NCBI GenBank assembly: GCA_021736975.1
Contig: JAIPET010000001.1
Coordinates: forward strand, 26,147-90,146
Length of the DNA: 64,000 nucleotides
Source of the DNA: Candidatus Woesearchaeota archaeon
GTDB lineage: Archaea; Nanobdellota; Nanobdellia; Woesearchaeales; 21-14-0-10-32-9
Direction of reading: 5' to 3'
Of the stretch, positions 3,247 through 60,015 are shown one piece after another (position 1 is the stretch's first letter; the number at the start of each line of letters is the position of its first letter). A program made the position numbers and the translations under genes. The notes under the pieces were generated by a model. It did not search any database. It was not told the DNA's origin and saw only the letters and a program-made list of their open reading frames with translations.

Positions 3247-3277
3247 AAGGTGTCTCAGCCCACTTAGCCTGACTATT

Positions 3278-44350: not shown

Positions 44351-45349
44351 TTGGAATCGAAAAACTCAAGAGGTCCGTTCGGACATCGAAACGAAGCTAA
44401 AGAAAAAACAATAACAGATGAACAATTCGAGAGATTCATTAAAGCAGTTGCATTTGTAGAAGAACCTGAGTATATCGCTTTTTGGGAGAACATATACTAT
44501 TGTGCATCATACTTGGGTCTTAGAAGTATTGAAACATGCAAAGTAAGAATAGAAGATATTGACTTTTTAGCCAAAACCCTCACATTACCCGAACAAAAGA
44601 ATAAGGTTCGATTTGAAAAGATCATTATCCCTGATTTCATGCTTGAAAGACTAAAAGAACACATAATAAAATACAAAGCCCAAATTATCATAAATTCAGA
44701 ATATGGTAGCTTAATTCACGATCCAAGAATCATATCCAAAGCAAAAAAGCAAGAACTCAAAGGAGAATATTATCTCTTCTGGAGAATGAAGCAAAAAATC
44801 AGAGGTTGTAAACGATACAATGAGAAACACATGGATACTTCTACTATCAGAACTCACTTAATCAAAACTAGAAAGACTGCAGGTCTTGACATGAAATACG
44901 GAATGACCAACACAGGTCATGCATTATCCATCCTAAGTTACCATACCCTTAGGCATTATTATCTGCAGAAGATTTGTGATCAAAGAGGAGTCTTTGCGGC
45001 TCAGATAAGTGGTCGACATAAGAATTTACGATCTACAGAAAGATATTTGACAACTTCATTAACAGCCAAACAATCTATTGTCAATGAAGTATTCAATGTT
45101 CAATCACAACATGAATCGGCAGAAATTGCATCTCTAAAACATGAGATCCAGGAGCTGAAAGAAATTATGAAGGCTTCTGTCTTGCTTAGCAATGGCAATC
45201 CCAGAAACATCAAAAATCAAAATAGGATAGCAGTAGAAGAATCAGAAAGTTATATGCAAAATCGAGCATTGTATCAGGCTCGTAAGATCAGACGAGTGAC
45301 CGAAGAAACTGAAGTCAGAAAAGAAGTTGTTGTAGGTGAACAATTTTAA
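44351..45349 (+). CDS. int: tyrosine recombinase / integrase (paralog 2)
   Basis: About 60% identical to 42173..43057 across the catalytic region, same R/H-x-x-R/Y residues. Confidence 0.75.
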   Translation: MESKNSRGPFGHRNEAKEKTITDEQFERFIKAVAFVEEPEYIAFWENIYYCASYLGLRSIETCKVRIEDIDFLAKTLTLPEQKNKVRFEKIIIPDFMLERLKEHIIKYKAQIIINSEYGSLIHDPRIISKAKKQELKGEYYLFWRMKQKIRGCKRYNEKHMDTSTIRTHLIKTRKTAGLDMKYGMTNTGHALSILSYHTLRHYYLQKICDQRGVFAAQISGRHKNLRSTERYLTTSLTAKQSIVNEVFNVQSQHESAEIASLKHEIQELKEIMKASVLLSNGNPRNIKNQNRIAVEESESYMQNRALYQARKIRRVTEETEVRKEVVVGEQF

Positions 45350-45666: not shown

Positions 45667-48069
45667 ATGAAATACGAATTAATAGGATTAGGAAACCCGA
45701 TGATGGATATAATGTTAGAAGTCTCTGATGAAAAATTACAAGAATTAAATTTACAAAAAGGACAATGCAACTTAGTAGATGAAGAAACAATAAAAAAATT
45801 AGAATCGCAAATAGATGAATCAAATGGAAAATTGATTTTAGGCGGATCAGTATCAAATATGATTGCAATATTCTCGCAATTAGGCGGAAAATCAAAATTT
45901 ATAGGAAAAATAGGTTCTGACAAAATAGGTCAAAAATATGAAGAAGGAATGAAAAAAATAGGAGTAGATCCAAATCTAATAATTTCTGAAAAAATGACAG
46001 GACGAAATTTAAATTTTGTGACTCCAGACTCAGAAAGAACAATGACAGTTCATCTAGGTTCTGCATTAACATTAAGATCAGAAGACATATCAGAAGAGAT
46101 AATACAAGAAACAAAATATTTCCAAGTAGCAGGATACGTATTAGAAGACGAAAATCTAAGAACTGCAACAATAAAAGCATTCAAAATAGCAAAACAAAAA
46201 GGAGCAAAAATATCAATAGACTTAGCAGATCCATGGCTGGTAGAAAGATGTAAAAACTCTTTATTAGATATAGTTAAAGAACACGCAGACATATTATTTG
46301 CAAACGAAGAAGAAGCAAAAAAAATAACAGGAAAAGAAACAGCAAAAGAATCAATAGAAGAACTATCAAAATATGTAGATTTAGTAATTGTAAAAATAGG
46401 AAAAGAAGGAAGCATAATAAAAAAACAAAACGAAAAAATAATCACAATAAAAGGATTTAAAGTAGAAGCAAAAGACACAACAGGAGCAGGGGATAGCTAC
46501 GCAGGAGCATTCTTATATGGATTAACACAAAATTGGCCACTAGAAAAAACAGGAAAACTAGCATCCTTTATAGCATCAGAAGTTGTAAAAATCATAGGTG
46601 CAAGATTAACAAAAATACCTGAATACGAACACATATTCAAAAATACATTTTCAACGGAGGAAACAAAAATGGATTATAAAGTAGCAGATATATCGCAAGC
46701 AAAATACGGAAGACAAGAAATAACAATAGCAGAAAAAGAAATGCCAGGACTAATAGCACTAAGAGAAAAATACGGCGAAGAAAAACCACTAAAAGGCGCA
46801 AAAATAATGGGCTCACTACACATGACAATACAAACCGCAGTACTCATAGAAACATTATCTGAATTAGGAGCAGACGTAAGATGGTGCTCATGCAATATTT
46901 ATAGTACACAAGACCATGCAGCAGCAGCAATAGCACAAACAGGAATACCTGTATTTGCATGGAAAGGAGAAACACTAAAAGAATACTGGTGGTGCACAGA
47001 ACAAGCACTAACTTGGCCAGATGGAACAGGACCAGACCTAATAGTTGATGATGGAAGCGACGCAACAATGCTCGTTCACAAAGGAGCTGCAGCTGAAAAA
47101 AATCCTGCTTTGCTAAACATTGATTACAGTAGTGAGGGTGAAGATTACCAAGAACTAATAAAATTAATAAAAGAATCATATCAAAAAGACAAAACTAAAT
47201 GGACAAAAATCGCTGAATACATAAAAGGAGTAAGCGAAGAAACAACAACAGGCGTAAATAGACTATACCAAATGATGAAAAACAAAGAATTACTATTTCC
47301 TGCAATAAACGTGAATGACTCAGTAACAAAAAGCAAATTTGACAACCTATACGGCTGCAGAGAATCATTAGCAGACGGAATCAAAAGAGGAACAGACGTA
47401 ATGATAGCAGGAAAAAAAGTTTTAGTATGCGGATATGGAGATGTAGGGAAAGGATGCGCACACAGCATGAAAAGCTATGGTGCTAGAGTTACAGTAACCG
47501 AAATAGATCCAATATGCGCATTACAAGCAGCAATGGAAGGATACGAAGTAAAAACCATTGAAGATGTCGTATCGGATGTAGATATATTTGTAACAACAAC
47601 AGGAAATAAAGACATAATAACAATACAGCACATGGAAAAAATGAAAGACAACGCAATAGTTTGCAACATCGGACATTTTGACAACGAAATCCAAGTAGAA
47701 AAACTAGAAAAATATCCAGGAATAAAAGAAGAAAACATAAAACCACAAGTAGACAAATTCGAATTCCCAGACGGACATTCAATAGTTTTACTAAGTAGAG
47801 GAAGACTAGTAAATCTAGGAAATGCAACAGGACACCCAAGCTTTGTAATGAGTAACAGTTTTACAAACCAAGTACTAGCACAAATAGAACTATGGAAAAA
47901 CAAACACGAAATAGGAGTAAGCGTACTTCCAAAAGAACTAGACGAAGAAGTAGCAAGACTGCACTTAGCAAAAATAGGAGTGAAACTAACTAAACTAAGC
48001 AAAGAACAAGCAGACTACATAAACGTTAAACAAGAAGGACCATATAAACCAAATCACTATAGGTATTAA
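45667..48069 (+). CDS. fused adenosine kinase (PfkB family) and S-adenosyl-L-homocysteine hydrolase
   Basis: N-terminal half has the PfkB signature [13 protein letters not shown]; C-terminal half has SAHH hallmarks ([20 protein letters not shown]-binding [10 protein letters not shown]); single uninterrupted 800-aa ORF. Confidence 0.8.
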
Positions 48070-48258
48070 TTTTTTTTTTATTTTTTACTTTTTGGGCATG
48101 CATAAATTATGTATTTATATCCGCGGAAAAAATATGGATGCGACCGTAATCAGCTAATGCTGATTGAATATAGTTGTTTTATGTGTTTTTTCTGCAAGAA
48201 AAAAAGCCGAAGGCTCAGTTCAAAAAATATTTTTCGCACTTCTTCAAAAACGAGCTTT

Positions 48259-48717
48259 TTACTTTTCAAAATAAGTTTTATATGACCTTAAAGTTGCATT
48301 TCCTATGCTTCTTGAACCAAAATTCCTATATAGAAATCCTAAAAATCCTGGAAATTGTACATTACTTATAATTAGATGAAAATTGACAACCTTGCCTTTA
48401 CTAGAAAACTCACAAAAATAATGTGACTTTCCATTCATCTTTTTTCCGGCTTGGTATTCTTCATCGAATTCAATTACAAATTTATCTGTTTGGACACTTT
48501 TAACAATATTTGTACGTTTCATAAGTCCTTCATTGTTTTTAATTATTACAAAATCCTTCCCTTCCTTATCCAAAACAACATTTGAAATTCCAGGCATTAG
48601 GCTAACTACACCAACAAAATGTTTCCCAATTTCTGCAAGTGATTTTTTAACTTTTTGTATATCGCAATCAATTTGATTAGAACCATCGAACCAAACAGAT
48701 TTTTTTAATTTAGTCAT
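48259..48717 (-). CDS. hypothetical protein
   Basis: 152-aa ORF bracketed by an 18-bp perfect inverted repeat. Confidence 0.4.
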   Translation of the reverse strand: MTKLKKSVWFDGSNQIDCDIQKVKKSLAEIGKHFVGVVSLMPGISNVVLDKEGKDFVIIKNNEGLMKRTNIVKSVQTDKFVIEFDEEYQAGKKMNGKSHYFCEFSSKGKVVNFHLIISNVQFPGFLGFLYRNFGSRSIGNATLRSYKTYFEK

Positions 48718-48897
48718 ATAAAACTTATTTCTTTATTATTATATAAATGTATTCGTCATCCAAGATAAATATTTTTTTAATTGAATGCGCTATGTGTTAA
48801 ATGATTGTGTGGTAGAATGAAAGAAGCAATATTTTGTTTAAATGTTGATAAGTTGTGTGAGGCAAAGTCGAAACCCGTAGATTTTTATTATTGCGCG

Positions 48898-49179
48898 TTA
48901 TTTGTAAATATTTTTTCTATGGCCTATTTCAATAACAATAATTAAAAGTTTGCCTGCTTTAATGTCAATAATTACTCTATAGTCTCCAACTCGTAATCTA
49001 AAATAAGGAGAAGCAACTAATTTTTTAACGTGAGAATGTGGTCTAATTCTACATCTTTCTAATGTAGAAATAATTCTTCTAGAATCTTGTTTATTTAGTT
49101 TATTTAGGAATTTTTTAGATTCGTTTGTAAAAAAAAGATCAAACACTAAAAAATCACCTCGTGATTTTGTGTGCACCAA
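48898..49179 (-). CDS. RelE/ParE-family type II toxin
   Basis: ...YFRLRVGDYRVIIDI...IIVIEIGHRKNIYK. Confidence 0.7.
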   Translation of the reverse strand: MVHTKSRGDFLVFDLFFTNESKKFLNKLNKQDSRRIISTLERCRIRPHSHVKKLVASPYFRLRVGDYRVIIDIKAGKLLIIVIEIGHRKNIYK

Positions 49180-49203
49180 AAATTTTTAATTTTTAAGTGC
49201 ATT

Positions 49204-49422
49204 TTACATTCCTAATTCCTTTTTAACATCTTCAAGAGAATAAACTCTTCCTGCTTTAATATCTTCTTCAGCTAGTTTGATTCTTTTTTTAGTTTCTTCA
49301 GATAATTCCATGGAATCCTCTAAAGCATCCCAAATTACTTCTTCATAAGATTCTTTATCATACATCTTTCTCTCTTTTAGTTTTGAGAGCAATTCTTGAC
49401 TTACTGATATTGTTGTTGCCAT
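49204..49422 (-). CDS. antitoxin candidate (RelB-like) upstream of RelE
   Basis: 72-aa acidic protein immediately upstream of and co-oriented with the toxin. Confidence 0.45.
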   Translation of the reverse strand: MATTISVSQELLSKLKERKMYDKESYEEVIWDALEDSMELSEETKKRIKLAEEDIKAGRVYSLEDVKKELGM

Positions 49423-49999
49423 AACAACTATATAATTGACTATATATATAAATATTTTGTTTTTTTAAGGCTTAAAAGAAAATTAGAACCTAAATACAAT
49501 TGCAACTAATCCTTGTAGGGCTGAAATTTAGTACCTCGTTCCGAAGGAAAATTTTTGAGTAAGCGGGCGGGCGACATTCTAAGCAAATTGGGATAGGATT
49601 ACTAAAGAAATTATTGCAAGAACAGATTTAATACCTGTATCGGGACATGAATATACTCATAGAGTGCAACATAACAATGGAGTTGTGTCTAAAAAATATT
49701 CAATATTTATGGAAGGTCATGCAAGGGGAGTGCAAAGACAATTATCTGAAGATTATCAAGAGTGAGAAGACAACGAAGCATTTCTCTATAACATTTTGGA
49801 CATCACAGTTGGAGAATTTAAAAGTACATATTTATGGATGTGTAAAAAGTTAGGCCAAGAACCAAGTAAAAGTTTGTTAAAAACAAAAAGCATACGAAGC
49901 AGGAAGAAAATAAATTTTACTTTTTTTTAGCTTTCCTTTATTCTTATTTTATCTTTCGGTTTAGTCAAAGCCCTATTCTATTTTTAGCCCAAATCTCAA

Positions 50000-50042
50000 A
50001 TTGCAATTAATCCTTGTTATACGTTTTTTCTGCAAGAAAAAA
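50000..50042 (+). repeat. dif-like site followed by the hairpin TTTTTTCTGCAAGAAAAAA; start of a 130-bp repeat module
   Basis: ATTGCAATTAA-TCCTTG-TTATACG then a perfect 8-bp stem with GCA loop; the module 50000-50130 is about 95% identical to 56125-56245. Confidence 0.6.
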
Positions 50043-50155
50043 AGCTGAAGGCTCAGTTAAATTTTCACGTTAATAAATATCGACCAAAGGGAGCCTATAT
50101 GTCCGAAGGACGAGTTGGGGCGTTTTAAATAGTTAAATATATAATGAGTTAATGT

Positions 50156-51159
50156 TTGTTTGTTCTTATGGTTGCAAACGATGATGAAATTAGAACAATA
50201 TTCAAATCATTAGATTTAAACATAAATAATATTTCTAAAGTCAAAACACTTGCTAATTTCTTGGTTAAAGTTGAAACTGATAAAGGGAATTATTTTCTAA
50301 AGATTTATGATAGTAAAATAGAAGCTAAGACAGGTTACAAATTAGCTCATTTGTATCCGCTTTTATTAGAAAATAATATTCCTGTTCCAAAAGTTGTCAA
50401 ATATGATGACAGTTTAGAATTAGTTAAGCATCCTTACTTGATAATTACTGAAATTGAAGGTCAAATGCTTTGCGATGTAATTGAGACAATGAGCAGAAAA
50501 GAAAAAGTTTCTTTTTATTATGAATTTGGAAAAATAATTGCGAATTTCCATTCAATTACTTTTGATAAATTCGGAGAAACTTTTGATGGTAAAACTGTTC
50601 AGAATTTTACTGAAGCAAATAATAAAGGTCCGTTTGATAATTGGAAAGATATGCATAAAGAAATAATCGAATTTAGGTTAAATATTTTCAGAAACTCAAG
50701 TTTTGAAGATCTAATTGAACCTATTAGTTCTTGGTTTGAAAAAAATTCAGATCTTATTGATTATCATATTACTCCGAGACTACTTCATATTGATTTAAAT
50801 CAAAAAAATGTATTCGTGAATAATAATAAAATTTCAGGAATAATTGATTTTGATGGAGCTTTTGTTGGACATAATGAAGAAGAATTAATGAGAACTGAAG
50901 GTGCAAATTTTTCAAATGATGAAGAATTAAAGCAATCATTTTTCGAATGATATACAGAAATTATTAAATTAGATTCTGATTATGAACTACGAAGAAAATA
51001 CTATTATTTTGCAAGATTACTTGTTCATACTGATTGCATAATTCAATATGGTGAAAGTTATGTTGATGTTAAAAAAGAAGGAGATATTGTTAGAAAAGAA
51101 ATTTTTAAATTATTAAATGATGAAGAAATTGATTTTAATAAGAATAAGCGAAATACTTA
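50156..51159 (+). pseudogene. aminoglycoside/choline-kinase-type phosphotransferase (APH family) with in-frame TGA at 50948-50950
   Basis: HIDLNQKNVFV (HxDLxxxN) and IIDFDGAF (DFG/IDxD) motifs; the same frame stays open for 69 more codons after the TGA, giving a typical family length of about 334 aa. Confidence 0.55.
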
Positions 51160-51214
51160 ATCTAGCTCCAACTCTTTTTGTTTCTTTTTTCTAAAAAGAA
51201 AATAGTGAAAATTT

Positions 51215-51238
51215 AATTGCGTATAAGCCTTGTTATAC
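51215..51238 (+). repeat. dif-like palindromic site ATTGCGTATAA-GCCTTG-TTATACG
   Basis: 7-bp perfect inverted arms CGTATAA/TTATACG around a 6-bp spacer; a member of an at least 10-copy family, all in + orientation, lying between the single-gene units. Confidence 0.6.
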
Positions 51239-51302
51239 GTTTTTTCTGCAAGAAAAAATCGCGAAGTGAAACGTAGCGACAGTATGACGCAAGGTGGTGG
51301 CG

Positions 51303-51860
51303 TTACAGAAGTGGCTTAATATTATTAAATAATTCTTCAAATTCAATATATCCTGCTTCCTCGTTAAAGTGTCCTGCATTTTTTATAATATTAGGTATTG
51401 CACCAAGTTTATCTGCTAACTCATTTGCACATTCTATTGGAACGTAAGGGTCATTATCTGAATGATAAATAAAGAATTGTTTACAATTTTGTTTTATCTT
51501 TGACCAATCAAAGGTTTTATCTACAAATGTTCTATTGATTGAATCAAAAGTTTCATTTCCTAATAATTTTAAGAAACCTGAAATGAAATATGAACCTTTG
51601 ATTGTTACATTAATATGTTCCAATACACTTAGTAAAAATGCAGGTGCTAAACTATGACCTACAAAAATGGTATTCTCATCAATTTGGTTTTCATATTCTG
51701 CAAAAATAGTATTCCAGTTTTCCAATGATTGATTTTCAGGAGTTGGAAATTCAGGAACAATCACTTCGTGATTTAATTCTTCTAATTTTTGCTTTAACCA
51801 AGGAAACCAGTTTTCTTTTGGATTACCAAAAGCACCATGAATGAGGAAAATTTTTGTCAT
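51303..51860 (-). CDS. alpha/beta hydrolase (YdeN/RBBP9-like serine hydrolase)
   Basis: 185 aa, GHSLA nucleophile elbow, D and H later in the sequence. Confidence 0.55.
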   Translation of the reverse strand: MTKIFLIHGAFGNPKENWFPWLKQKLEELNHEVIVPEFPTPENQSLENWNTIFAEYENQIDENTIFVGHSLAPAFLLSVLEHINVTIKGSYFISGFLKLLGNETFDSINRTFVDKTFDWSKIKQNCKQFFIYHSDNDPYVPIECANELADKLGAIPNIIKNAGHFNEEAGYIEFEELFNNIKPLL

Positions 51861-51920
51861 AATAATATAATAGAAAGCAGGATTTTATAAGATTTGTGAT
51901 TAAGCCACCACCTGAGTAAT

Positions 51921-51944
51921 ATTGCGTATAATCCTTGTTAAACT
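51921..51944 (+). repeat. dif-like site (right arm degenerate)
   Basis: ATTGCGTATAA-TCCTTG-TTAAACT. Confidence 0.5.
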
Positions 51945-52064
51945 CTCCGTTAGGATTGATTTTTAGTGCAACGATGCCGAAGGCAAAAAATCAAAGTCGA
52001 GAAAGAGGGCGTTCTATTTAATGAGCGAATGCAATACATCAAGAACAGGAATATAGGGGCACAC

Positions 52065-52982
52065 TCACGTTTCTTTTAGTTCATATACATTATCCAATAA
52101 ATCTGGCTTTGGAATTGAAGATAATTCTCCTTTACTTCCACTTTTAACCCATTTAATATGCCATAAATATAGAAGTCCGACAGACATTTGTTCTAAATAT
52201 ATTCCTAATGTCCAAATTATTCCTTCATAAATTATTACTACTGTCCAAAATAAAGATGAGAATGCAACACCAGATTTATCCAAATAAATAATTATTATCA
52301 ATGGAATAGCCATAAATAATGATGCAATACCTGTTAAAGTATATGTTGTAATAAATTGTAATGGATGTTTTTTTATGACTTCAAGAGATCTTTTAAACGC
52401 TGAAAATGGTCCTTTATTTTCCCAAGCAATAGCTGGTAATGTTAAAAAGATGTACATTCTAACTAATTTTTCAAACATTCTTAATCCGAGTTTTAACCAA
52501 CTAAAGGGTCCAGAGTTTGCTCCTCCTAATGTTAATGCAGCATCTCTAGGAGATGGTTCTGGTCTTGAACTTCTTCCTTTCTTTTTACTAGTTAAAACTC
52601 TAATAATTAGTAGAATAAACCAAACAATTGCCCAAATTAGCGCGACTGGAATTACTTTTATCAAATCTAAAAATACTGCTTCTTTTATTGCTTTTCCAAA
52701 TGATATTTTTTCTCCGAATTCAATCTGTTGCATGAATTCAAGCATCATAATATTTGCAACACAAATAATTAATGTAATCAGGAAAATTACTCCAAATATA
52801 ATTAATAGTAGTAATCCTAAATCATTTGGTGCTTCAAAATAATACCTTAGATATAATATAATTGATGCAACTAAAATCCATGAGAAAAATATTGGGATTA
52901 GAAAAATTGGTTTTCTAAAAAGAAATTTGAATGAATCAGTAAAAAGTTTCCATCCTTCGCCTAGTTTACCTAAAAATGCCAT
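52065..52982 (-). CDS. polytopic membrane protein
   Basis: 305 aa with several hydrophobic helices; flanked by two nested perfect 14-bp inverted repeats. Confidence 0.45.
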   Translation of the reverse strand: MAFLGKLGEGWKLFTDSFKFLFRKPIFLIPIFFSWILVASIILYLRYYFEAPNDLGLLLLIIFGVIFLITLIICVANIMMLEFMQQIEFGEKISFGKAIKEAVFLDLIKVIPVALIWAIVWFILLIIRVLTSKKKGRSSRPEPSPRDAALTLGGANSGPFSWLKLGLRMFEKLVRMYIFLTLPAIAWENKGPFSAFKRSLEVIKKHPLQFITTYTLTGIASLFMAIPLIIIIYLDKSGVAFSSLFWTVVIIYEGIIWTLGIYLEQMSVGLLYLWHIKWVKSGSKGELSSIPKPDLLDNVYELKET

Positions 52983-53084
52983 TTAAATATTAAATGTCAA
53001 GAGTAATATATAAATATTTCTAGAGTGAGTGTGCCCCTTTCAAATCTTTAGCCCTCTTTCTCGATTGAGTTTAAGTGCTGTTAT

Positions 53085-53125
53085 CTTTCCTGACGACCAA
53101 AGGGAGGAAAGCGCAGCGGGGCTCG
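53085..53125 (+). repeat. repeat module B: CGACGACYRAARGGAGGARAGCGCAGCGGGGC
   Basis: Copies at 53085-53125, 53958-53995 and 58897-58930, partial at 60072-60100; contains the SD-like AAAGGAGG. Confidence 0.5.
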
Positions 53126-53299
53126 AAGGTGTAGCGAAGCGGAACCATCGAGAGTTGAGAATAAGTCCGTCCATCAGATGAACGAAGTGGTACATCTAGA
53201 CAAATCATCGAGGGGTTTGGTTGTTAGAAAACTTGTTGCCACTAAATAGAGACTATAAAGCGAAAGGTTTTTAAATACATAATCATTTTCCTTTTTAAA

Positions 53300-53902
53300 A
53301 TGACAATAATAATTCCAAAATATTCAGAATCAAAAATTGTTGAACCAACAAAACAAGATTATCAACAACTAAGTATTGATATGCCTGATAAGAAAAATAT
53401 AAGATTAGCATCATTAGATGAAATAAAAACTTTTTCTGGAGTTGATTTATCATATGGAGTTCCAATTATTAAAAAAGGATTTTTTGGAAATAAAAATTCA
53501 GATTTATATGCACCAACTGATGAAGATTGTTCTAGATTAGGAATAGAAAATAATTATGCCGTATCTCAAGAAGGTGATGTAATGCTAAAAAGTTATTCTT
53601 TAGAAGATGGTGTTGCATATGTTTCTGATCCACATGGAAGTTTAGTTGAAACTTTTGCAAAAAGTTCAGCAATAGCATCGGATGTAATCAAAAATGGAAT
53701 TGTAAATATGAAAGTATTTATCAAAGATGCAGGTATTGGAAATTTAGTATTAACCCATCCTGATGTGGGTACTTCTTTAAAAAATCATGGATCAAAATTT
53801 GTTGATACCTTATTTCCAAATTATAGAAAAATAATGGCAACAATACCAGATTCAAGTTCGCAAGGTATAACATCTAACGGACTAGAATATGCATTATATT
53901 AA
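53300..53902 (+). CDS. hypothetical protein
   Basis: 200-aa ORF; TATA-like TTTTTAAATA about 25 bp upstream; flanked by a 14-bp perfect inverted repeat. Confidence 0.45.
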   Translation: MTIIIPKYSESKIVEPTKQDYQQLSIDMPDKKNIRLASLDEIKTFSGVDLSYGVPIIKKGFFGNKNSDLYAPTDEDCSRLGIENNYAVSQEGDVMLKSYSLEDGVAYVSDPHGSLVETFAKSSAIASDVIKNGIVNMKVFIKDAGIGNLVLTHPDVGTSLKNHGSKFVDTLFPNYRKIMATIPDSSSQGITSNGLEYALY

Positions 53903-54102
53903 ACCAAACCCCCTTCTTTTTTTTAGGACTTATTCTCAATTGAAGATAATTCCTGTTATGTCTCCCGACGACTAAAAGGAGGAGAGCGCAGCGGGGCAAA
54001 ATCCAAAGGATTTTGAGTTCAGAATTCGGGCGTTATTAATATTAACTTTAAAGTGGTAACAGTACCGAAAGATTTATAAATATAAAGTCAATTCATTTTA
54101 TT

Positions 54103-54387
54103 ATGAGATTATATCAAAAAATTATCGCTGGAGGAATAGTAATTGCTGGTTTGGCTGGACTTACTGGATGTAAAGATAATTCTAATCAAGAATCTCAAAG
54201 AAATGAACCTGCTCCATCACATTTTGCGACAGTTCCAATGGTTTATGAAACTGGAATGTCAATGACGAGTGGAGATTTTGATGGAGATGGAGATTTAGAT
54301 TTGATTGTTGGAGCAAAATATCCTGGAAAAAGCGAAGGACGAGTTTATAGATTCAACAATGATGGAGAAGGTAATCTTTCTCAGTAA
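54103..54387 (+). CDS. lipoprotein with FG-GAP/VCBS-like repeat
   Basis: Signal peptide and lipobox LTGC; DFDGDGDLDLIVGAKY; TATA-like TTTATAAATA about 25 bp upstream. Confidence 0.5.
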   Translation: MRLYQKIIAGGIVIAGLAGLTGCKDNSNQESQRNEPAPSHFATVPMVYETGMSMTSGDFDGDGDLDLIVGAKYPGKSEGRVYRFNNDGEGNLSQ

Positions 54388-54433
54388 ATCTTTCGGTTTC
54401 TATAATTATACTTTTAGCCCGAATTCTGAATTA

Positions 54434-54472
54434 GACATAATCCTTGTTATACGTTTTTTCTGCAAGAAAAAA
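54434..54472 (+). repeat. dif-like half site plus hairpin TTTTTTCTGCAAGAAAAAA
   Basis: ...ATAA-TCCTTG-TTATACG followed by the hairpin; a variant module is shared with 51239-51300. Confidence 0.5.
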
Positions 54473-54518
54473 TTGCGAAATGAAATGGAGCAACAGTATG
54501 ACGCAGAGAGCTTTTCCG

Positions 54519-55016
54519 TTACTTGTTGAAAAAATTAATACATTCTGGAATTACTTTTAGAAAATTCTCTGGAGAATTATTTAAACTTTGAAGTAATTCC
54601 TCTTTTGAAAACCATTTGATTTTTTCAACTTCATCTTCTTGAATTGTAAATTGTTTTATATCTTTATCGACTAAAGCAAAAAACCATTGAGTAAAATGTT
54701 TGTGTTCTCCATCGTGAAAATGATGAAATGACTTTTGAAATTTTTGATTCTTTAAACCAATCTCTTCTTCAGCTTCTTTAACAATATTGGATTCATATGA
54801 TTCTCCTTCATCAATAGTTCCAGCAACTGCTGGACCCCATTTCCCAGGATTATTTTTTTTGTTAAATGATCTTTGTGCAAGGAGAATCTCGCCATTAGAA
54901 TTTTGAATCCATAAAGCTGAAACTCTATAAATATCAGATTGGTTTAAAGTTCCTCTTTCTTTAGAACCTATGATTTCATCATTTTCATTTACAATAACTA
55001 TTTTTGCTTTAGACAT
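54519..55016 (-). CDS. NUDIX hydrolase
   Basis: Nudix box GTIDEGESYESNIVKEAEEEIGL. Confidence 0.75.
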   Translation of the reverse strand: MSKAKIVIVNENDEIIGSKERGTLNQSDIYRVSALWIQNSNGEILLAQRSFNKKNNPGKWGPAVAGTIDEGESYESNIVKEAEEEIGLKNQKFQKSFHHFHDGEHKHFTQWFFALVDKDIKQFTIQEDEVEKIKWFSKEELLQSLNNSPENFLKVIPECINFFNK

Positions 55017-55075
55017 ATCTTTTTACAATTCAAGAAGTAATATAAATTTATCGAAAGGAAAAGCTCTCGAGTAAT

Positions 55076-55099
55076 ATTGCGTATAACCCTTGTTATATT
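55076..55099 (+). repeat. dif-like site
   Basis: ATTGCGTATAA-CCCTTG-TTATATT. Confidence 0.5.
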
Positions 55100-55167
55100 C
55101 CCCGTAGGGCAGAAATTTAGTGCAACGTCCCGAAGGGAAATTTCAGAGTTTTGGAAATGGGCCGTCA

Positions 55168-56064
55168 TTAAAAATTTGATATTAAAAAATCTGTAACAAC
55201 TTTTGCTAATTCTTCTTCCTTATCTTCAAAATCGTGATTAGTTTTTGGAATAATTACTGCTTTGGTTCTGCTGTTACTTTTCTTCAATAATTCAACTGAT
55301 TCGTTGACTGACATCATCATATGTTCAGAACCTTCTTTAACAACATCTGCATTTGTGAATTTGTCATTATTTGAAATTACTGCCAAAATAGGAACTTTAA
55401 TTTTAGAATAAAAATCCAATTTCTTTAGACGAAATGGAAATGCTTTAGATAATTCTGAATTGTCTGAAAACTGATTTATGAACGATTCGGCACTTTTTGG
55501 CAGTATCCCTGCGTGACTATACCATTGTGTTGTTAAAAATTGTTCTCTTTTATCTTTTTCAATTAGGTTTTTTGCTTCAGTAAATAAGTCATCTTTACAG
55601 TTAGTTTTATCCATGAATTTATGGGCACAACCAAAAGAATCAGAAAAACCTAAAAGTACAATTCCAGTAATTTTATCTTTATACTTTCCTTTATTCATGT
55701 AATAAACAATTTTTTCAGTTCCTAAACTATGGCCTTGTAGGATTATGTTTGAATATCCCTTATTTATGACAAATTCAATCCATGCATCAATATCCAAAAG
55801 ACAATCCTCAAAATTCTCGACCGCTGAGCCTGTTTTTTGCCAAGTGTGTGTCAAAACAGAATTTCCTCTGTTGTTAATTGATAACCACGAGAATCCATTT
55901 TTGGGAAAAGCAACAGCCATATTCTCAAAGAATGGCTCTTCATAAAAATTGCTTGCAGAACCATGAATATTAATCACGATTTTGTCTGAATTTTTATTTT
56001 CCAAAAATAATCCGTGAAGAATTAACTTGTCTTTTGTTGTTACAGATACTATTGGGTATTTCAT
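55168..56064 (-). CDS. alpha/beta hydrolase (esterase/lipase-like)
   Basis: GHSLG nucleophile motif, 298 aa. Confidence 0.6.
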   Translation of the reverse strand: MKYPIVSVTTKDKLILHGLFLENKNSDKIVINIHGSASNFYEEPFFENMAVAFPKNGFSWLSINNRGNSVLTHTWQKTGSAVENFEDCLLDIDAWIEFVINKGYSNIILQGHSLGTEKIVYYMNKGKYKDKITGIVLLGFSDSFGCAHKFMDKTNCKDDLFTEAKNLIEKDKREQFLTTQWYSHAGILPKSAESFINQFSDNSELSKAFPFRLKKLDFYSKIKVPILAVISNNDKFTNADVVKEGSEHMMMSVNESVELLKKSNSRTKAVIIPKTNHDFEDKEEELAKVVTDFLISNF

Positions 56065-56124
56065 ATCTATATAGATTTGAAGAAGAATTAAAAAGATTTC
56101 GTTTTAGGCCCCTTTCCAAAATTG

Positions 56125-56245
56125 AATATAAGCTCTGTTATACGTTTTTTCTGCAAGAAAAAAAGCCGAAGGCTCAATTAAATTTTCACGTCAATCAATA
56201 ACGACCAAAGGGAGCCAATATGTCCGAAGGACGAGGGGGGTCCAG
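56125..56245 (+). repeat. dif-like half site, hairpin and 100-bp repeat module (second copy)
   Basis: Near-identical to 50000-50130; ends in the left inverted repeat of the next unit. Confidence 0.6.
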
Positions 56246-56286
56246 ATTTTTTGTTTCTTTTTTTTTAAAAAAGAATATTGAATCTT

Positions 56287-57714
56287 TTAGTTTCTCATAA
56301 TTTTTTCAAAAATTAATCCTACAAATATTCCAACTATTCCTGCTAACAAATTCATTATTGCCGGTTCAAATCCAAATAAAGGAATCTTAAGAAATAAGTT
56401 TAATATTACTGATATTAATCCGAAAGATAGGGCAAACCAACCAACAGTTTTTGATTTAATTCCATGTAATGGGGCTAATAAGCAAGGAAGCAAACCCATT
56501 AAACCCGCAATTTGAATAGTTGCTAAACTTACGATGAATTTAGGAGGTGAAATAGAAAGTATTACACTTATCACTAGAACAGATATCATCAATATTCTGC
56601 TTAGAGATACTTTAATTTTTTCTCTTTTCAAAACATTTTCTTCAAATATTGCTGTTACTGAAAGTAGAACTGAATCTATTGTTGATATGGATGCTGCAAC
56701 AACTCCGACAATCACAAGTATGGATGCAATGATTATCAATCCTAGTAAAAATCCTGTTGAGTTTGACAAAACACTTTGAATAACATCTCCGACTACAAAA
56801 TCAGGGGTTGAAACAGCAACATTTGCTGCAGCGTATAAACCAATTAATCCCGCAAACAAAATTGTAAAAACTCCTGCAATTGGATACCACAAGCTAATCA
56901 TCTTTAGCGTCTTTTTATTTGCTGCCATTATTCTTACACTAACTTGAGGTGTTGCTAGAACAATGAATGCAAAAAGTATTGCATAGGAGATTAAAAGAGG
57001 TACTGTGAAATAGCCATTCGGACCTGGAATTGAAGTTAGTCCTGCTTCACTAATCTTTGCTAAAAAATTAGTGCCTTTCATAAAAAATAACAATACTGCT
57101 CCAAAAACACCTACTCCAACTAAAGTGAATATTCCTTGAATTTGATCAGTCTTTGCGTCAACAATAGAACCGCCCTTCCATAAATAAAATCCAACTAAAG
57201 CCGCAAGAATTATTAAACCAGTGATATAGCTAATTGCTCCATCTGTATATGAAACAAATAATTTGCCTATTCCAGCTAGTTGCAATATTAAATACGGAAA
57301 CAAAAATAATATTGTTGTCAAAGATAATATTTTTGAAAGACTTTTTGAATTATATCCATCTAATAACAATCCAATAGGAGAAAGAAAAGTTTTATTGTTT
57401 TTTTCTTGGTCCTGTCTTAGTTTTGATATTTTAACACCATAAGTCATTAAAATAATAGGAGTTAACATCACACCTAAACCGAGAAAGAAAAATGCACCGA
57501 CTCCATGTGCATAATATAATGCGGGTAAACCAACAACAGTGAATGCACTAAATGTTGTAGCAAAAAGAGAAAAGAAAATAAGGTTCGGACTAAGTCTTCC
57601 AATAGCAGTAAAAAATTCATAATTAGTGATTTTTTTAGGGAGTTTAATTTTAACCCATAAAGAAATTCCAATAACCAAGAGAATGGATATAATTGCAATT
57701 GTTAGTTCAATCAT
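56287..57714 (-). CDS. polytopic membrane transporter (sodium:solute symporter-like)
   Basis: 475 aa, about 12 hydrophobic helices. Confidence 0.4.
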   Translation of the reverse strand: MIELTIAIISILLVIGISLWVKIKLPKKITNYEFFTAIGRLSPNLIFFSLFATTFSAFTVVGLPALYYAHGVGAFFFLGLGVMLTPIILMTYGVKISKLRQDQEKNNKTFLSPIGLLLDGYNSKSLSKILSLTTILFLFPYLILQLAGIGKLFVSYTDGAISYITGLIILAALVGFYLWKGGSIVDAKTDQIQGIFTLVGVGVFGAVLLFFMKGTNFLAKISEAGLTSIPGPNGYFTVPLLISYAILFAFIVLATPQVSVRIMAANKKTLKMISLWYPIAGVFTILFAGLIGLYAAANVAVSTPDFVVGDVIQSVLSNSTGFLLGLIIIASILVIVGVVAASISTIDSVLLSVTAIFEENVLKREKIKVSLSRILMISVLVISVILSISPPKFIVSLATIQIAGLMGLLPCLLAPLHGIKSKTVGWFALSFGLISVILNLFLKIPLFGFEPAIMNLLAGIVGIFVGLIFEKIMRN

Positions 57715-58219
57715 AATTTAGATTTATTAATTAAAGTTTATAATGTTTTCTAAAATCAACGTGGACTTGGAATGTTTTTCTCAGTAAATCAATTTCGAAC
57801 AACAAAGTTGTGAGCCAATATGTGCGTAGCACCTGGACTCCCCCTCTTTTGCTTCTTTTTCTAAAAGAAGAATGAGATTTAGACTAGTGAAAATTTAATT
57901 GCGTATAACATCGCGATTAAGAGAAGTTGTTTGCAGTGACTTTAATCTATAAATAAGCAAACAATTTGGGCTAATTTCTGGTCGGGCACGAAGCCGATTT
58001 GCGAAGCAAAAAGAAATTACCTCTTAATCTGCTGTTGGGAGATTTTTTCTGAAAGAAAAAACACGAGCTGACGCACAAAGCGTCCTCGTGAGTAAAAAAT
58101 TATCTTTGGGTGGGGGGCGGAGGTGGAAACTCCGCAATTAAATAGGAAAAATTATCGTGTTATTTTGAGAAATTAGGGTTGGGCGAAAGACTTATAAACT
58201 ATAGGGTGATAACAAGAAT

Positions 58220-58570
58220 ATGATAAAAGAAATTTGGAAAGAATGTGTAGCACTTGGCTTAGCAGGAGCAATTTATTTTTCTCCAGCTGCGGTTGAAATT
58301 TACATGAACAGCAAATTTAAGGACATTGGAGAAGAATTTTCTGTAAGAGAAATTGGTAATCAAAGACAATTTTATATTGGTGCCGAGATGGGATTGGCTC
58401 GTCTTGCAATAGATGAAAACAAAGACGGCACCCTTGACAAAGTATATAGAAATATGCCAATTTCTCCAATGATGGGTGGTCCAGGATACAGATTGATGGA
58501 AACAGAAACAACCGCAACCGACAGAGAAAAATTTGCAAGGGCAGAACGACTTCTAAGCCAAGCAAAATAA
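58220..58570 (+). CDS. hypothetical protein
   Basis: 116-aa ORF; TATA-like CTTATAAACT about 25-30 bp upstream. Confidence 0.4.
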   Translation: MIKEIWKECVALGLAGAIYFSPAAVEIYMNSKFKDIGEEFSVREIGNQRQFYIGAEMGLARLAIDENKDGTLDKVYRNMPISPMMGGPGYRLMETETTATDREKFARAERLLSQAK

Positions 58571-58877
58571 ATTCTTTCTTTCAAAAATAAAGCCCTACCC
58601 TAAGAAAAATTTGGGAGAGCAAAGCGAACCCTTTACCCTTTGTTATATGAGGTGCGAAGCATTTCATTTCTGTTTTTGTTTGGTCGGGTAAAAGAAGTTT
58701 TTCATAGTATTTTCACGATGATTTTTCAGTATCTCGGGTGGGAAGAAAGATAATTTTTTATTTCCCCGAGCCGAAGAATGAGGCGAGTGGTGTAAATCCC
58801 AACGTCAGGGATATACGAAGTTTTTCTGGAACGAAGCGGAAGAAAAATTTGGGTGAAGCCCGAGCCGAGGGCTGAAC

Positions 58878-58897
58878 CGTATATCCCTTGTTATACG
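58878..58897 (+). repeat. dif-like site
   Basis: CCGTATAT-CCCTTG-TTATACG. Confidence 0.5.
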
Positions 58898-58969
58898 CCC
58901 CGACGACTGAAAGGAGGAGAGCGCAGCGTGGTGCGAACGAAGTGAGCAAGTCAGTGGAGTGGCGTTAAT

Positions 58970-59935
58970 CTAATAAGAAGTCGTTCTCGTTAAATGATAT
59001 GGTTTATCATTTTTTAATTTTTCTTGTCCAAGAATCCAAATATGATCGTTAACATGAATAGAATCTGCGTGTGCAATCTTCTTTTTTATCTTTTGTTTGA
59101 TTAGTTCTACAACCCAAACAGTATTTGCTCTTAATTCTATTTCTTCCTCGCTGTCTTTATCAATTTGAATTTGATTATCAATTTTATCAGCGAGGTAATC
59201 TGAATAAGAGAAAATACCTAATCTTCTTAAAACAAAAGGTAATTTATAATCGGCACACGCAGTTAGTTTATCAATATTTTTTAACTTGCCAAATTCGTGT
59301 CCGTTGAAAGCTTGCACAATATCAGCAACTAAAAGTTGTGCACGCTTGTAAAAATAAACTCTCTTTCCGTTGTAAGTTGATGAGTCCTCAAAAGAAGGAA
59401 AATTCTCAACTATCAAACTCAATAATTTTTGTGAATCGCCATTTGCTTTTTCTAGGAGATTAGTAAAATCGCCGTCAAATTTCTTGAGTAATGTTGTTCC
59501 AATTTCTCTTAAAATATTCAACCTTTCTTCAAAAAGAGGAATTTGAACATTTCCCTCCAAGATTTTACTAAGCTCTTCTTCTTTAATCTCAGAAAGAAAT
59601 TTTGCGTCCAAAATGGGAATTTTATTTTCTATTGCTCTGGCAACAGCACTTATCATTCCATACGCACCATCAACTTCTTCGGAATGATAAATTATTTTCC
59701 ATTTTGGGTCGCCCCAATATGAAAAACTGATTGAGTTAAACACGAGTAAAAAATGCAGTCTATCTTTCGGGCTTAACTTTTTGAGATTAAATGGCGATTC
59801 ATCAATCCAATGTTTGATATGAGAATGACTAAAATAATCAACAAACTCATCAACTTTTTCAGAGTTTATTTTTACGTGTTGAGAATTATCAACAACGAAT
59901 TTGCAAGTTTCAATTATTCTATTCATGTTATCCAT
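58970..59935 (-). CDS. hypothetical protein (possibly DUF2419 / queuosine-salvage-like)
   Basis: 321-aa ORF; the family assignment is tentative, from overall pattern only. Confidence 0.35.
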   Translation of the reverse strand: MDNMNRIIETCKFVVDNSQHVKINSEKVDEFVDYFSHSHIKHWIDESPFNLKKLSPKDRLHFLLVFNSISFSYWGDPKWKIIYHSEEVDGAYGMISAVARAIENKIPILDAKFLSEIKEEELSKILEGNVQIPLFEERLNILREIGTTLLKKFDGDFTNLLEKANGDSQKLLSLIVENFPSFEDSSTYNGKRVYFYKRAQLLVADIVQAFNGHEFGKLKNIDKLTACADYKLPFVLRRLGIFSYSDYLADKIDNQIQIDKDSEEEIELRANTVWVVELIKQKIKKKIAHADSIHVNDHIWILGQEKLKNDKPYHLTRTTSY

Positions 59936-60015
59936 TATAAATTAAAAAATGATACTAATTAAAAAATGTTTCTATAACGACTTCCACTTTGTAGCCACTC
60001 CACTGATTGCGTATA

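Follow-up and report, generated by a model that had tools for sequence, protein, structure and literature searches.

For the way in which prokaryotes accumulate and rearrange individual genes, integrons serve as the model system, yet the origin of their integrase, IntI, and of their recombination site, attC, is an open question. In its canonical form, an IntI-type integrase with an additional domain reads outward beside tandem mobile single-gene cassettes, which are mostly promoterless, co-oriented and served by a common promoter, and each attC spans 57-141 nt with R'' (RYYYAAC) and R' (GTTRRRY) boxes at its ends and L''/L' inside; according to the literature, the IntI-specific insertion is essential for integron function. 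Three other described systems offer points of comparison. The archaeal dif site, the target of XerA, has a 6-bp spacer with an imperfect inverted arm of about 11 bp on either side; a replicon carries it once, in the terminus region and at a position unlinked to xerA (Cortez et al. 2010, PMC2958812). Acinetobacter pdif modules are small plasmid-borne units bounded by Xer sites (arm, 6-bp spacer, arm) that alternate in inverted orientation and are used by the host XerC/XerD; the modules move from one replicon to another with a cargo of accessory genes and toxin-antitoxin pairs, and are not known to have attached hairpin modules or bracket arms. In archaeal bulge-helix-bulge (BHB) processing stems, long-range inverted repeats enclose a functional unit, and a transcript containing both arms forms a 4-bp helix with two 3-nt bulges on opposite strands. 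Literature searches for the motif and concept described below led only to work on canonical integrons, dif modules and Xer, with no description of such a platform.

Within the 64,000-nt stretch of Woesearchaeota DNA analysed here (the window), an initial annotation had described a membrane-protein gene as a discrete unit bounded by two nested, perfect 14-bp inverted repeats. Both pairs are indeed perfect; the arms are GC-rich 14-mers, each occurring once per strand in the window, and dinucleotide shuffles gave chance expectations of 0.01 and 0.00 matches with 1 mismatch allowed. The left arms lie where they had been placed, the outer, TCGAGAAAGAGGGC, at 51997-52010 (+) and the inner, AGGGGCACACTCAC, at 52055-52068 (+), whereas the right arms, previously put at 53015-53028 and 53041-53054, are each shifted 10 nt further along, to 53025-53038 (inner, GTGAGTGTGCCCCT, +) and 53051-53064 (outer, GCCCTCTTTCTCGA, +). 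The spacings, given earlier as 45 versus 13 bp, measure 44 nt on the left (52011-52054, +) and 12 nt on the right (53039-53050, +). As had been noted, the inner left arm covers the stop codon (52065-52067) of the minus-strand ORF at 52065-52982, whose product, 305 aa long, is a multi-pass membrane protein weakly similar to DUF4013/DUF6159, and the inner right arm is immediately upstream of a TATA-like box, TTTATATA (minus strand, 53007-53014). Located inside the arms and about 25 nt upstream of the ATG, this box, as read from the sequence, would be the cassette's own promoter.

The flanks of this gene revealed further structure. Upstream lies a dif-like core whose left arm, ATTGCGTATAA (51921-51931, +), is assigned to the preceding serine-hydrolase cassette by core alignment and by breakpoints falling directly after ..TAA, so that the core spacer TCCTTG and right arm TTAAACT (51932-51944, +) would be the first bases of the cassette under study. 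A type-2 hairpin module (CCGTTAGG..; TTGATTTTT-AGTGCAACGATGCCGAAGGC-AAAAAATCAA) with a CGAAG mini-hairpin follows at 51945-51996 (+); homologous copies with covarying stems lie at 55099-55140 and 49520-49560, and the copy in L057, a Woesearchaeota contig considered below, is 90% identical. The outer left arm comes next, followed by a conserved C/GTT. On the other side, the right spacer is T-rich (TTCAAATCTTTA), of a type ending ..TTTTA that recurs in other cassettes, and the outer right arm directly abuts the downstream core, whose left arm, TTGAGTTTAA (53065-53074, +), would supply the last bases of the cassette. The following cassette then starts with the spacer GTGCTG, the right arm TTATCTT and a type-3 module (GACGACCAAAGGGAGGAAAGCGCAGCG...), together a GC-rich island at 53075-53168 (+) that ends in its own outer arm, TTGAGAATAAGTCC (53155-53168, +). 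We consider it likely that the unit is one cassette, spanning about 51932-53074, of an integron-like array with a Xer-type tyrosine recombinase.

The array covers about 13 kb (48165-60880, +) and contains at least 11 unrelated genes, on both strands, separated by about 13 composite intergenic elements that are all in direct orientation, with the repeat family present in every intergenic gap; sibling contigs carry the same array. By Pfam, the cargo comprises proteins of 152, 200 and 116 aa of unknown function, a ParE/antitoxin pair, an APH kinase, a serine hydrolase, the DUF4013 membrane protein, FG-GAP, Nudix and DUF1749 hydrolase proteins, an SSF transporter, a queuosine-salvage protein and CrtO. 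In each of these elements, a hairpin module follows a dif-like palindromic core (about GCGTATAA-NNNYTG-TTATACG); core spacers differ between neighbouring sites, and TATA/BRE-like promoters lie inside the cassettes, whose genes face both ways. The "bracket architecture" for which the membrane-protein unit had been singled out turned out to be general along the array. All 10 cassettes tested possess a cognate arm pair of 8-14 perfect nt, compared with 3 of 90 non-cognate left/right combinations reaching 10 nt or more, two of these three being between cassettes with a common arm sequence. The arms are specific to each cassette. Across the window, 44 perfect 14-mer inverted pairs no more than 3 kb apart were counted, concentrated at 48-62 kb, as against 1-7 in shuffles, which rules out chance or low complexity as the origin of the arms. 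A MITE or other terminal-inverted-repeat transposon was rejected as well: the arms differ from cassette to cassette instead of forming one common terminal repeat, and the left flank, C/GTT, is not repeated directly in the right one, TTTTA/, as it would be in a target-site duplication.

The intergenic DNA of the array is also strand-asymmetric, with 20 GNA mini-hairpins on the (+) strand versus 4 on the (-) strand, compared with 36 and 36 elsewhere. Gene-less hairpins with covarying stems occupy the same core-adjacent position, and the reconstructed closed sites adopted one shared predicted fold in 8/8 cassettes (z -4.5 to -10.7). Crossover linkage analysis at the spacer edges gave 16/44 and 2/7 against a background of 33/1538, at a resolution no finer than the 6-nt spacer.

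Abutting the array and reading away from it is a gene for a 271-aa XerA-like tyrosine recombinase (61038-61853, +). Homologs of this enzyme were found in 13 of 119 related 2-8-kb loci, downstream of the module in 13/13 and on the same strand in 11/13, and the recombinase is thus physically linked to the element beyond this window. It aligns end to end with Pyrococcus abyssi XerA (4A8E), and in the alignment with IntI4 (2A3V) its residues 177-198 (22 aa) stand opposite IntI4 residues 179-246 (68 aa), such that the IntI-specific insertion of about 46 aa is absent. With the TIGR02249 integron-integrase model it scored 187 bits against a cut-off of 265, and neither the XerA nor the IntI model scored it above the curated cut-off; it could simply be the host's chromosome-resolution Xer. 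Two further recombinases at 42-45 kb are divergent, with weak XerA/IntI matches, and their homologs were not found in the related loci.

Compared with integrons, including the archaeal ones (Ghaly et al. 2022, PMC9668308), the array has the same overall plan: a tyrosine recombinase, reading away, at the end of tandem, unrelated single-gene cassettes, among them a toxin-antitoxin pair and gene-less cassettes. In both, the sites are structured, strand-asymmetric and more alike within a genome, and the cassettes are bounded at a conserved short box, their first bases pairing with their own far end. The parts, however, are different. The recombinase is XerA-like without the IntI insertion. By inspection, no attC with R boxes at its ends and L''/L' inside was recognised, and within each intergenic element the two ends lack complementarity; the R-like boxes are instead adjacent (4-6 nt) within a dif-like palindrome and the stem lies outside them, as in an attC turned inside out. 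Moreover, 70-130 nt of the site are at the cassette 5' end, so that arms of 10-25 nt bracket the gene. The array further differs in having modules shared across phyla, cassettes in both orientations with their own promoters in place of a common one, and fold-back through coding sequence.

The core, ATTGCGTATAA-NNNYTG-TTATACGnnnn, conforms to dif in geometry, with imperfect inverted arms of about 11 bp and a 6-bp spacer, and on that basis is a candidate Xer site; both the recombinase family and the site geometry match archaeal XerA/dif. In contrast to the published single-copy dif, at least 13 tandem copies (about 13 cores in 13 kb) lie beside the xerA-like gene, each attached to a mobile gene. 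The likeness to pdif modules extends to small modules bounded by Xer sites and to their cargo, whereas in the array all cores and modules are in the (+) orientation, chromosomal and beside a single Xer-like gene, and are accompanied by hairpin modules and arms. Like BHB stems, the cassette has long-range inverted repeats enclosing a functional unit, but what they enclose here is a protein gene whose promoter is internal; the architecture is found in bacteria too, and the evidence points to DNA.

Comparison with other genomes bears on mobility. The Nudix cassette (window 54424-55096) recurs in another genome (locus L118) at 91% identity with different neighbours on both sides, and the homology runs from ..TAA/TCCTTGTTATACG to ..GCGTATAAC(C)/, breaking exactly at the cores, which shows that whole cassettes are mobile. 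In L057, an unrelated 302-aa cargo is carried in the chassis of the cassette under study, made up of both outer arms, the hairpin module, the 44-nt left spacer and the left core arm. There, the outer left arm and TTGAGTTTAA are identical to those of the window, which diverges from L057 right after that core arm, and the left spacer is conserved. The inner arms, AGGGGGACAATTTA and TAAATTGTCCCCT, differ in sequence from those of the window and retain their pairing; AGGGG of the inner left arm is common to the L057 chassis, while its other 9 nt are cargo-specific. Sequence comparison thus documents mobility for the neighbouring cassette and for the chassis, not for the exact unit, which was found in four contigs, all with one context and one orientation. 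JGI metagenome contigs gave no match for the right end of the unit and no excised circle, tandem junction or empty junction for this cassette. Among other loci, 22 arm pairs of differing sequence had the right arm abutting the core, versus 4 in a mirror control, and a Patescibacteria contig (L044) carries brackets of 15 and 25 nt. Conserved sequence modules are common across phyla, and archaea and bacteria of ultra-small size both carry the element family, with identities of 95-99% in places, although the taxonomic labels of many of the MAG contigs that carry it may be unreliable. The plasmid database held no match to the conserved element and viral contigs a single one, and these two sources gave no sign of a plasmid or viral vehicle. 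A locus first taken for an empty site (L012) consists of two cassettes of one arm family, and a protein gene was considered after the ultra-conserved element, where there is no ORF.

Complementarity is not confined to the arms. In four cassettes (Nudix, queuosine salvage, CrtO and α/β-hydrolase), fold-back pairing runs through the ORF, and 0/200 synonymous shuffles reached the observed score; ssDNA folding of the first three gave z-scores of -12.1, -9.8 and -5.8, respectively. Between the window and L118, one compensatory pair of synonymous changes was identified. For the membrane-protein cassette itself, the intragenic complementarity was reached by 63/200 shuffles (z -2.3) and is not significant. 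On these sequence data, the pairing is under selection, and the earlier view that the inverted repeats are functionally meaningful was borne out, given that their pairing is conserved with compensatory change in L057 and L118. Selection on base pairing through protein-coding sequence, with compensatory synonymous changes, is unusual for cellular genes, and it would imply that folding in single-stranded form is important to the cassettes.

We propose that each intergenic element be read as the right arm or arms of the previous cassette, a dif-like core, one of a few hairpin modules and the left arm or arms of the next cassette, where the core has a 6-nt spacer between two arms that are 7-11 bp long. 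The core spacer, or its edge, would be the place of recombination, and a mobile unit would begin with the spacer and the right core arm, continue through the module, arm A, the gene and arm A', and close with the left core arm. The two arms of a site would hence come to lie on opposite sides of a gene, and each gene would be bracketed by its own inverted repeat. A' and A may pair in the excised circle or whenever the DNA is single-stranded; in the cassette under study, outer and inner 14-bp helices split by a 44 x 12 nt loop would form, the cassette folding back on itself and presenting core and module on a stem. A precedent is CTX phage, one of the IMEX elements that exploit Xer/dif, in which the substrate of the Xer recombinase is a hairpin folded from single-stranded DNA and only one strand is exchanged. 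We infer that the pairing occurs in single-stranded DNA of the + strand and serves recombination, for which the recombinase at 61038 would be the catalyst. The cassettes would thus fold back, probably as single-stranded DNA, and the GNA strand bias, predicted folds and heterogeneous spacers point indirectly to recombination of a folded single strand.

The data do not discriminate between pairing in single-stranded DNA, pairing in read-through RNA and a double-strand reaction in which the arms have another role. We regard it as unlikely that the array consists of double-strand Xer/dif-type modules (Acinetobacter dif modules, IMEX) undergoing ordinary duplex recombination at the cores, with arms and fold-back unrelated to the reaction and serving in transcription insulation or termination, stability of a ssDNA transfer intermediate, second-strand priming or silencing. 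The published dif geometry of the core, which is palindromic in duplex, and the end-to-end alignment with XerA speak for this account, and the T-rich right spacers and the coincidence of inner arms with promoters or stop codons fit an expression role. Nevertheless, neighbouring core spacers differ, and complete two-strand exchange by tyrosine recombinases tolerates differing spacers poorly; the arms are outside the gene's own transcript, and the strand bias, uniform junction fold and core-adjacent gene-less hairpins tie the paired stem to the site. An ordinary integron, with canonical attC and IntI and with brackets that extend the 6-7-nt complementarity of a cassette start with its own inverse core site, appears very unlikely. 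Against it stand a recombinase that lacks the insertion and scores below the IntI cut-off, R-like boxes 4-6 nt apart and not at the ends of a 57-141-nt hairpin, a variable stem outside the boxes, a 5' site portion of 70-130 nt instead of 6 nt, and cassettes in both orientations with their own promoters. This is in spite of the 187-bit integrase match, the outward-reading recombinase beside the array, the toxin-antitoxin cassette, published reports of integrons in Nanoarchaeota, and core arms (GTATAAC / GTTATAC) that equal the R'' and R' heptamers of an experimentally active Hadarchaeota attC.

At the RNA level, the flanks of a read-through transcript might pair, and the helix be cut or ligated in a BHB-like manner, releasing or circularising the cassette RNA, a scenario that we hold to be highly improbable. 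The flanks cofold as RNA at about -63 kcal/mol and their pairing is conserved with compensatory changes, but the likeness to archaeal processing stems suggested in the initial annotation did not survive folding, in which an internal loop of 44 x 12 nt separated two 14-bp helices and no BHB motif appeared. Rfam searches, run with gathering thresholds on the whole window and with E<=10 on 51700-53400, placed no family in the region, only chance microRNA/snoRNA matches, and ARAGORN detected no tRNA, which together rule out a split or interrupted known RNA gene. Since the gene's TATA box is inside the arms, its mRNA cannot contain the right-hand arms. Bacteria share the architecture, and to our knowledge Patescibacteria have no bulge-helix-bulge splicing endonuclease; gene orientation relative to the arms varies, and the breakpoints at cores and the recombinase linkage point to DNA. 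Hardly credible, finally, is an invertible switch in which the inverted repeats are flipping sites of the gene segment. Cassette genes do occur in both orientations relative to the elements, and an 86%-identical homolog of the membrane protein (L138) has the opposite orientation to module-like sequence; yet all four contigs with the unit show a single orientation, arms that differ per cassette give a recombinase no sequence to recognise, and an inversion site would not be expected to have nested pairs with unequal spacers or rungs within ORFs.

Returning to the array of fold-back cassettes, we tentatively suggest, as a possibility somewhat short of even, that it represents an undescribed "Xer-type integron", in which a XerA-like recombinase without the IntI domain acts on composite sites, the cassettes are selected for whole-length, rod-like ssDNA fold-back, and near-identical 131-nt gene-less elements are among those exchanged between DPANN archaea and CPR bacteria. 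It would carry out integron logic with different parts, namely a Xer-like recombinase, a dif-like core with attC R-box heptamers and a stem outside the boxes, and these different parts make a Xer-to-integron transition directly testable. Because its R-box heptamers are common with true attC, the platform could be sister or ancestor to integrons and so connect them with Xer/dif. The 95-99% sharing between archaea and bacteria, in turn, makes it a candidate for carrying genes across domains, in groups about whose mobile elements little is known.

The cargo of the cassette under study has a separate history. The 305-aa membrane protein is widely distributed and elsewhere is an ordinary chromosomal gene: around its homologs at 75-88% identity (L124-L138), in ordinary chromosomal contexts, the arms are absent, so they do not belong to the gene as such. 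The initial annotation had held that a lack of conserved pairing in homologous units would count against the brackets, and the answer depends on the unit compared, in that homologs of the gene lack the arms in chromosomal contexts whereas homologs of the chassis keep the pairing. Three of the chromosomal homologs share one ordinary neighbourhood, and L124 retains the homologous promoter of the membrane-protein gene.

The two nested perfect 14-nt inverted repeats that the initial annotation described around a membrane-protein gene are present in the sequence. An outer pair, TCGAGAAAGAGGGC (51997-52010) and GCCCTCTTTCTCGA (53051-53064), encloses an inner pair, AGGGGCACACTCAC (52055-52068) and GTGAGTGTGCCCCT (53025-53038); the left-arm coordinates first reported were right, the right-arm coordinates were 10 nt too low, and the spacing between the pairs is unequal as described, although the left spacer measures 44 nt and the right one 12 nt rather than 45 and 13. 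Each 14-mer occurs once per strand within the window, and shuffles allowing one mismatch gave expected matches to the two of 0.01 and 0.00. The arms enclose a minus-strand ORF (52065-52982) encoding a 305-aa membrane protein with weak similarity to DUF4013. Also as annotated, the stop codon of this ORF overlaps with the inner left arm, and a TATA-like box ~25 nt ahead of its ATG has the inner right arm a short distance upstream. Rfam and ARAGORN returned no matches around this cassette.

Against a GC background of 27-33%, a GC-rich island lies immediately to the right of the cassette. The window contains 44 perfect inverted pairs of 14-mers no more than 3 kb apart, compared with 1-7 in shuffles, and these cluster at 48-62 kb. 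Self-alignment revealed a direct-repeat family present in nearly all intergenic gaps from 48.2 to 60.9 kb, and a side-by-side reading of these gaps gave the order right arm, core, hairpin module and left arm of the next unit. The right-hand arm of the preceding unit comes after a T-rich stretch with a TTTTA end; the core is palindromic, with the approximate consensus ATTGCGTATAA-NNNYTG-TTATACG; the module is of type 1 (TTTTTTCTGCAAGAAAAAA...), type 2 (...TAGTGCAACG..CCGAAGG...) or type 3 (GACGAC.AAAGGGAGGA.AGCGCAGCG...); and the left-hand arm belonging to the unit that comes next is followed by C|GT(T/C). According to Pfam, the cargo genes are mutually unrelated and lie on both strands, comprising an APH kinase, a serine hydrolase, the membrane protein, two unknowns, an FG-GAP protein, a Nudix protein, a DUF1749 hydrolase, an SSF transporter, a queuosine (Q) salvage protein, CrtO and a ParE/antitoxin pair. 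An Orc1/Cdc6 gene upstream of the array indicates an archaeal host, and the nearest related contigs carry the Woesearchaeota label. Directly ahead of the first array element, an 800-aa fusion joins a PfkB-family kinase to an S-adenosylhomocysteine hydrolase (45667-48069). The core after the SSF cassette (TTGCGTATAAC-ATCGC...) is split at 57905-58035 by an insert of ~110 nt bounded by GATTAAGAG and CTCTTAATC, after which the site continues as TGCTGTT..TTTTTTCTGAAAGAAAAAA; cores of L057, a locus in another Woesearchaeota MAG, contain a similar insert with GGATTTAGAGA and TCTCTAAATCC. These inserts may represent a small hairpin element with the core spacer as its target.

The bracket architecture proved general, as the initial annotation had implied: a cognate arm pair of 8-14 perfect nt was found in all ten cassettes tested, whereas only 3 of 90 non-cognate left/right combinations reached at least 10 nt, two of them involving cassettes with a common arm sequence. 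A second, inner pair also occurs in the cassettes of a 200-aa unknown (unk200, 53212/53903), FG-GAP (54064/54385) and CrtO (several). In plus-strand cassettes, the BRE/TATA promoter is at the inner left arm and the stop codon at the inner right arm. Other loci yielded 22 perfect arm pairs of at least 11 nt, all different in sequence and with the right arm abutting the core, compared with 4 in a mirror control; in L044, a Patescibacteria contig, brackets of 15 and 25 nt surround consecutive genes.

Homologs of the membrane protein in other genomes (75-88% identity) lack arms, cores and modules, and three share the same ordinary neighborhood of a TPP enzyme, DsrE or DUF302, the membrane-protein gene and an RMMBL hydrolase. 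In one homolog, L124, the promoter and 3′ end are recognizably homologous to the window and the upstream arm is absent. The arms therefore belong to the cassette chassis around the cargo gene rather than to the gene itself. Conversely, L057 carries an unrelated cargo, a 302-aa protein, in a homologous chassis: its type-2 module and left core arm are those of the window, its outer arms are identical, its 44-nt left spacer is homologous and its T-rich right spacer is similar. Its inner arms, AGGGGGACAATTTA and TAAATTGTCCCCT, are unlike those of the window yet pair with each other and, as in the window, one of them overlaps the stop codon and the other lies ahead of the promoter. Conservation of the pairing in homologous units, which the initial annotation had made decisive, thus holds for this chassis homolog, through compensatory change, and fails for the gene homologs. 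The outer pair is tied to the chassis, and the inner one follows the cargo; AGGGG| ... |CCCCT marks the boundary. One of the gene homologs (83% identity; L133, 1225-3129), with no recognizable arms, adjoins an HTH and DDE_3 transposase pair and a 321-aa tyrosine recombinase.

Homology breakpoints were located within the cores. The Nudix cassette (54424-55096) is 91% identical over 674 nt to a locus from another genome, L118, with different neighbors on both sides; the homology starts in the left core at ...TAA|TCCTTGTTATACG and ends in the right core at ...GCGTATAAC(C)|. Within the window, the stretches 51203-51226 and 57885-57908 match perfectly as far as TATAA and diverge beyond; the right half TTCCTGTTATGTCTCCC-GACGAC is common to many loci whose left halves are completely different; and L057 shares the left core arm TTGAGTTTAA with the window, diverging right after it. 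Because the breakpoints recur at the same place in the core, the mobile unit consists of the gene between its arms A and A′, with the spacer, right core arm and module ahead of arm A and the left core arm behind arm A′. A linkage test on the edges of the 6-nt spacer singled out neither as the exchange point, and no excised circle or different context for the membrane-protein cassette itself was found in JGI metagenome contigs or in sibling contigs carrying the same array (GCA_021734925.1, GCA_021735585.1 and two Logan assemblies).

Closed sites, in which the right end of a cassette is joined to its own left element at the core as in an excised circle, were folded with DNA parameters. Eight of eight cassettes gave a common fold, with a basal A′/A stem closing a junction from which the core hairpin and one or two hairpins of the module emerge (z between -4.5 and -10.7 relative to shuffled sequences). 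The construction itself accounts for part of the basal stem and for none of the inner hairpins. In the membrane-protein cassette, the outer and inner helices with their 44 x 12 loop form the base of this structure. Gene-less versions are common, in which a hairpin of 9-10 bp, whose stem covaries freely and whose loop spans 3-7 nt (often GAGCCGA), adjoins the left core arm at the exact A′ position of gene cassettes. A variable paired stem beside the core is hence a constant feature of the site, and its loop may hold only a few bases or an entire gene. GNA mini-hairpins (N-S-GNA-S′-N′) number 20 on the plus strand versus 4 on the minus strand in 4 kb of array intergenic DNA, compared with 36 on each strand in the other 47 kb. 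Hairpins of the d(GCGAAGC) type are exceptionally stable in DNA, and together with the strand bias this suggests that the plus strand, the "bottom" strand under the recombinase-orientation convention of integrons, folds as DNA.

The arms are only the outermost rungs of a wider complementarity within cassettes, with nested scores of 24-95 in 11 cassettes versus 0-32 in 12 ordinary genes. Ladders of nested perfect inverted repeats of 10-16 nt extend across the coding sequences in the Nudix (54441-55086), DUF1749-hydrolase (55087-56131), Q-salvage (58885-60016) and CrtO (60017-60870) cassettes; Nudix has six concentric pairs from the outer arms to a center near 54843, mostly in the ORF, and Q-salvage about eight. 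Among 200 synonymous-codon shuffles per cassette, with protein and flanks fixed, none reached the observed score in any of these four; two further cassettes were marginal, and 0 of 10 control genes were significant. Single-stranded DNA folding gave z of -12.1 for Nudix, -9.8 for Q-salvage and -5.8 for CrtO. All rungs are kept in the L118 Nudix copy, one through a compensatory synonymous pair (Lys AAA to AAG and Ala GCT to GCC). Intragenic complementarity in the membrane-protein cassette was not significant (63 of 200 shuffles reached its score; z -2.3), which, speculatively, would fit later capture.

The type-3 module pattern (22 specified bases) matched more than 119 contigs of species-representative genomes, including archaea (Woesearchaeota, Nanoarchaeia, Pacearchaeota, Aenigmatarchaeota, Methanosarcinales and ANME-1) and bacteria (many Patescibacteria, Omnitrophota and others). 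Some of these labels derive from automated bins and may be wrong, but the matches include long curated CPR contigs (e.g., a 261-kb Falkowbacteria contig) and the single-cell Nanoarchaeota genome SCGC AAA011-G17. At 58801-58931, a mini-hairpin, a core and a type-3 module together form a 131-nt gene-less element that recurs in many loci (e.g., L016, L008, L091 and L100) and is 95-99% identical across contigs labeled Magasanikbacteria, Methanosarcinales, Gammaproteobacteria, Spirochaetales and others, reflecting either very recent cross-domain spread or mis-binning. In L044 (2585-2720) and ~24 other loci, an ultra-conserved element is followed by a conserved non-coding stretch without an ORF (GAGTTCAAAAAATATTTTTCG...TTTTGAAAAATGAAA-GAGGGGTTAGGGGTG-AATTTCATTTTTCAAAA) that contains a 16-bp hairpin; the first array element of the window (48220-48240) starts likewise, and the stretch may be an array terminus or primary attachment site.

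A 271-aa tyrosine recombinase with SAM-like and catalytic domains (61038-61853) abuts the array and reads away from it; the ORF was established by gene calls on the sibling contigs together with Pfam and NCBIfam. It scored 193 bits against the archaeal XerA model and 187 bits against the integron-integrase model, both under the cut-off. It aligned end to end with P. abyssi XerA (4A8E) and in two pieces with IntI4 (2A3V), 22 residues standing opposite 68 of IntI4; it therefore lacks the IntI-specific insertion, reported as essential for integron function. Homologs (35-48% identity) occur in 13 of the 119 short loci matching the type-3 module, archaeal and bacterial, downstream of the module in its orientation in 13/13 and, as in the window, on the same strand in 11/13. 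Two divergent tyrosine-recombinase paralogs with weak XerA/IntI similarity, inverted relative to each other (42173-43057, minus; 44351-45349, plus), share a 93-nt inverted repeat of 80% identity (42446-42538/44933-45025), flank small genes including one for a HARE-HTH protein, and have no homologs among the related loci.

Collectively, the best-supported reading of these sequences is an integron-like cassette platform putatively run by a Xer-type recombinase. The nested repeats would be two halves of the cassette's site stem, left on either side of the gene because crossover takes place inside a stem-closed site. Compared with canonical attC, the site appears by inspection to be inside out, with the variable stem outside the R-like heptamers; these heptamers, GTATAAC and GTTATAC, also occur in a validated Hadarchaeota attC and are here adjacent, making a dif-like palindrome with the published dif geometry. 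The arms would pair in single-stranded DNA, and pairing could aid recombination, for example by extruding the gene as a loop so that successive cores meet, or alternatively by presenting the core on a junction. The heterogeneous core spacers suggest that only a single strand would be exchanged. Our literature search, whose coverage was incomplete so that an earlier description is possible, found no account of this element or architecture; it returned canonical integrons of archaea, dif modules of Acinetobacter, studies of Xer/dif, and Xer-like recombinases of a "Cand" subgroup without an assigned role.

In the 5′ part of the window, an 86-nt template-like repeat adjoins an Rfam RT-16 RNA (3359-3502, minus; 84 bits), the repeat and its copies lying at 3273-3358, 3591-3676 and 6494-6579. 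Two paralogous genes (3562-4464 and 6465-7385) each carry a variable copy at the 3′ end, with most of the differences falling on T positions, which are A on the coding strand. The arrangement resembles a diversity-generating retroelement; among the ORFs checked, none was identified as a reverse transcriptase gene. A phage portal protein at 293-2392 (Pfam Phage_portal and Portal_Mu) suggests that this 5′ region belongs to a virus or provirus, and long ORFs occupy 20.8-31.4 kb.
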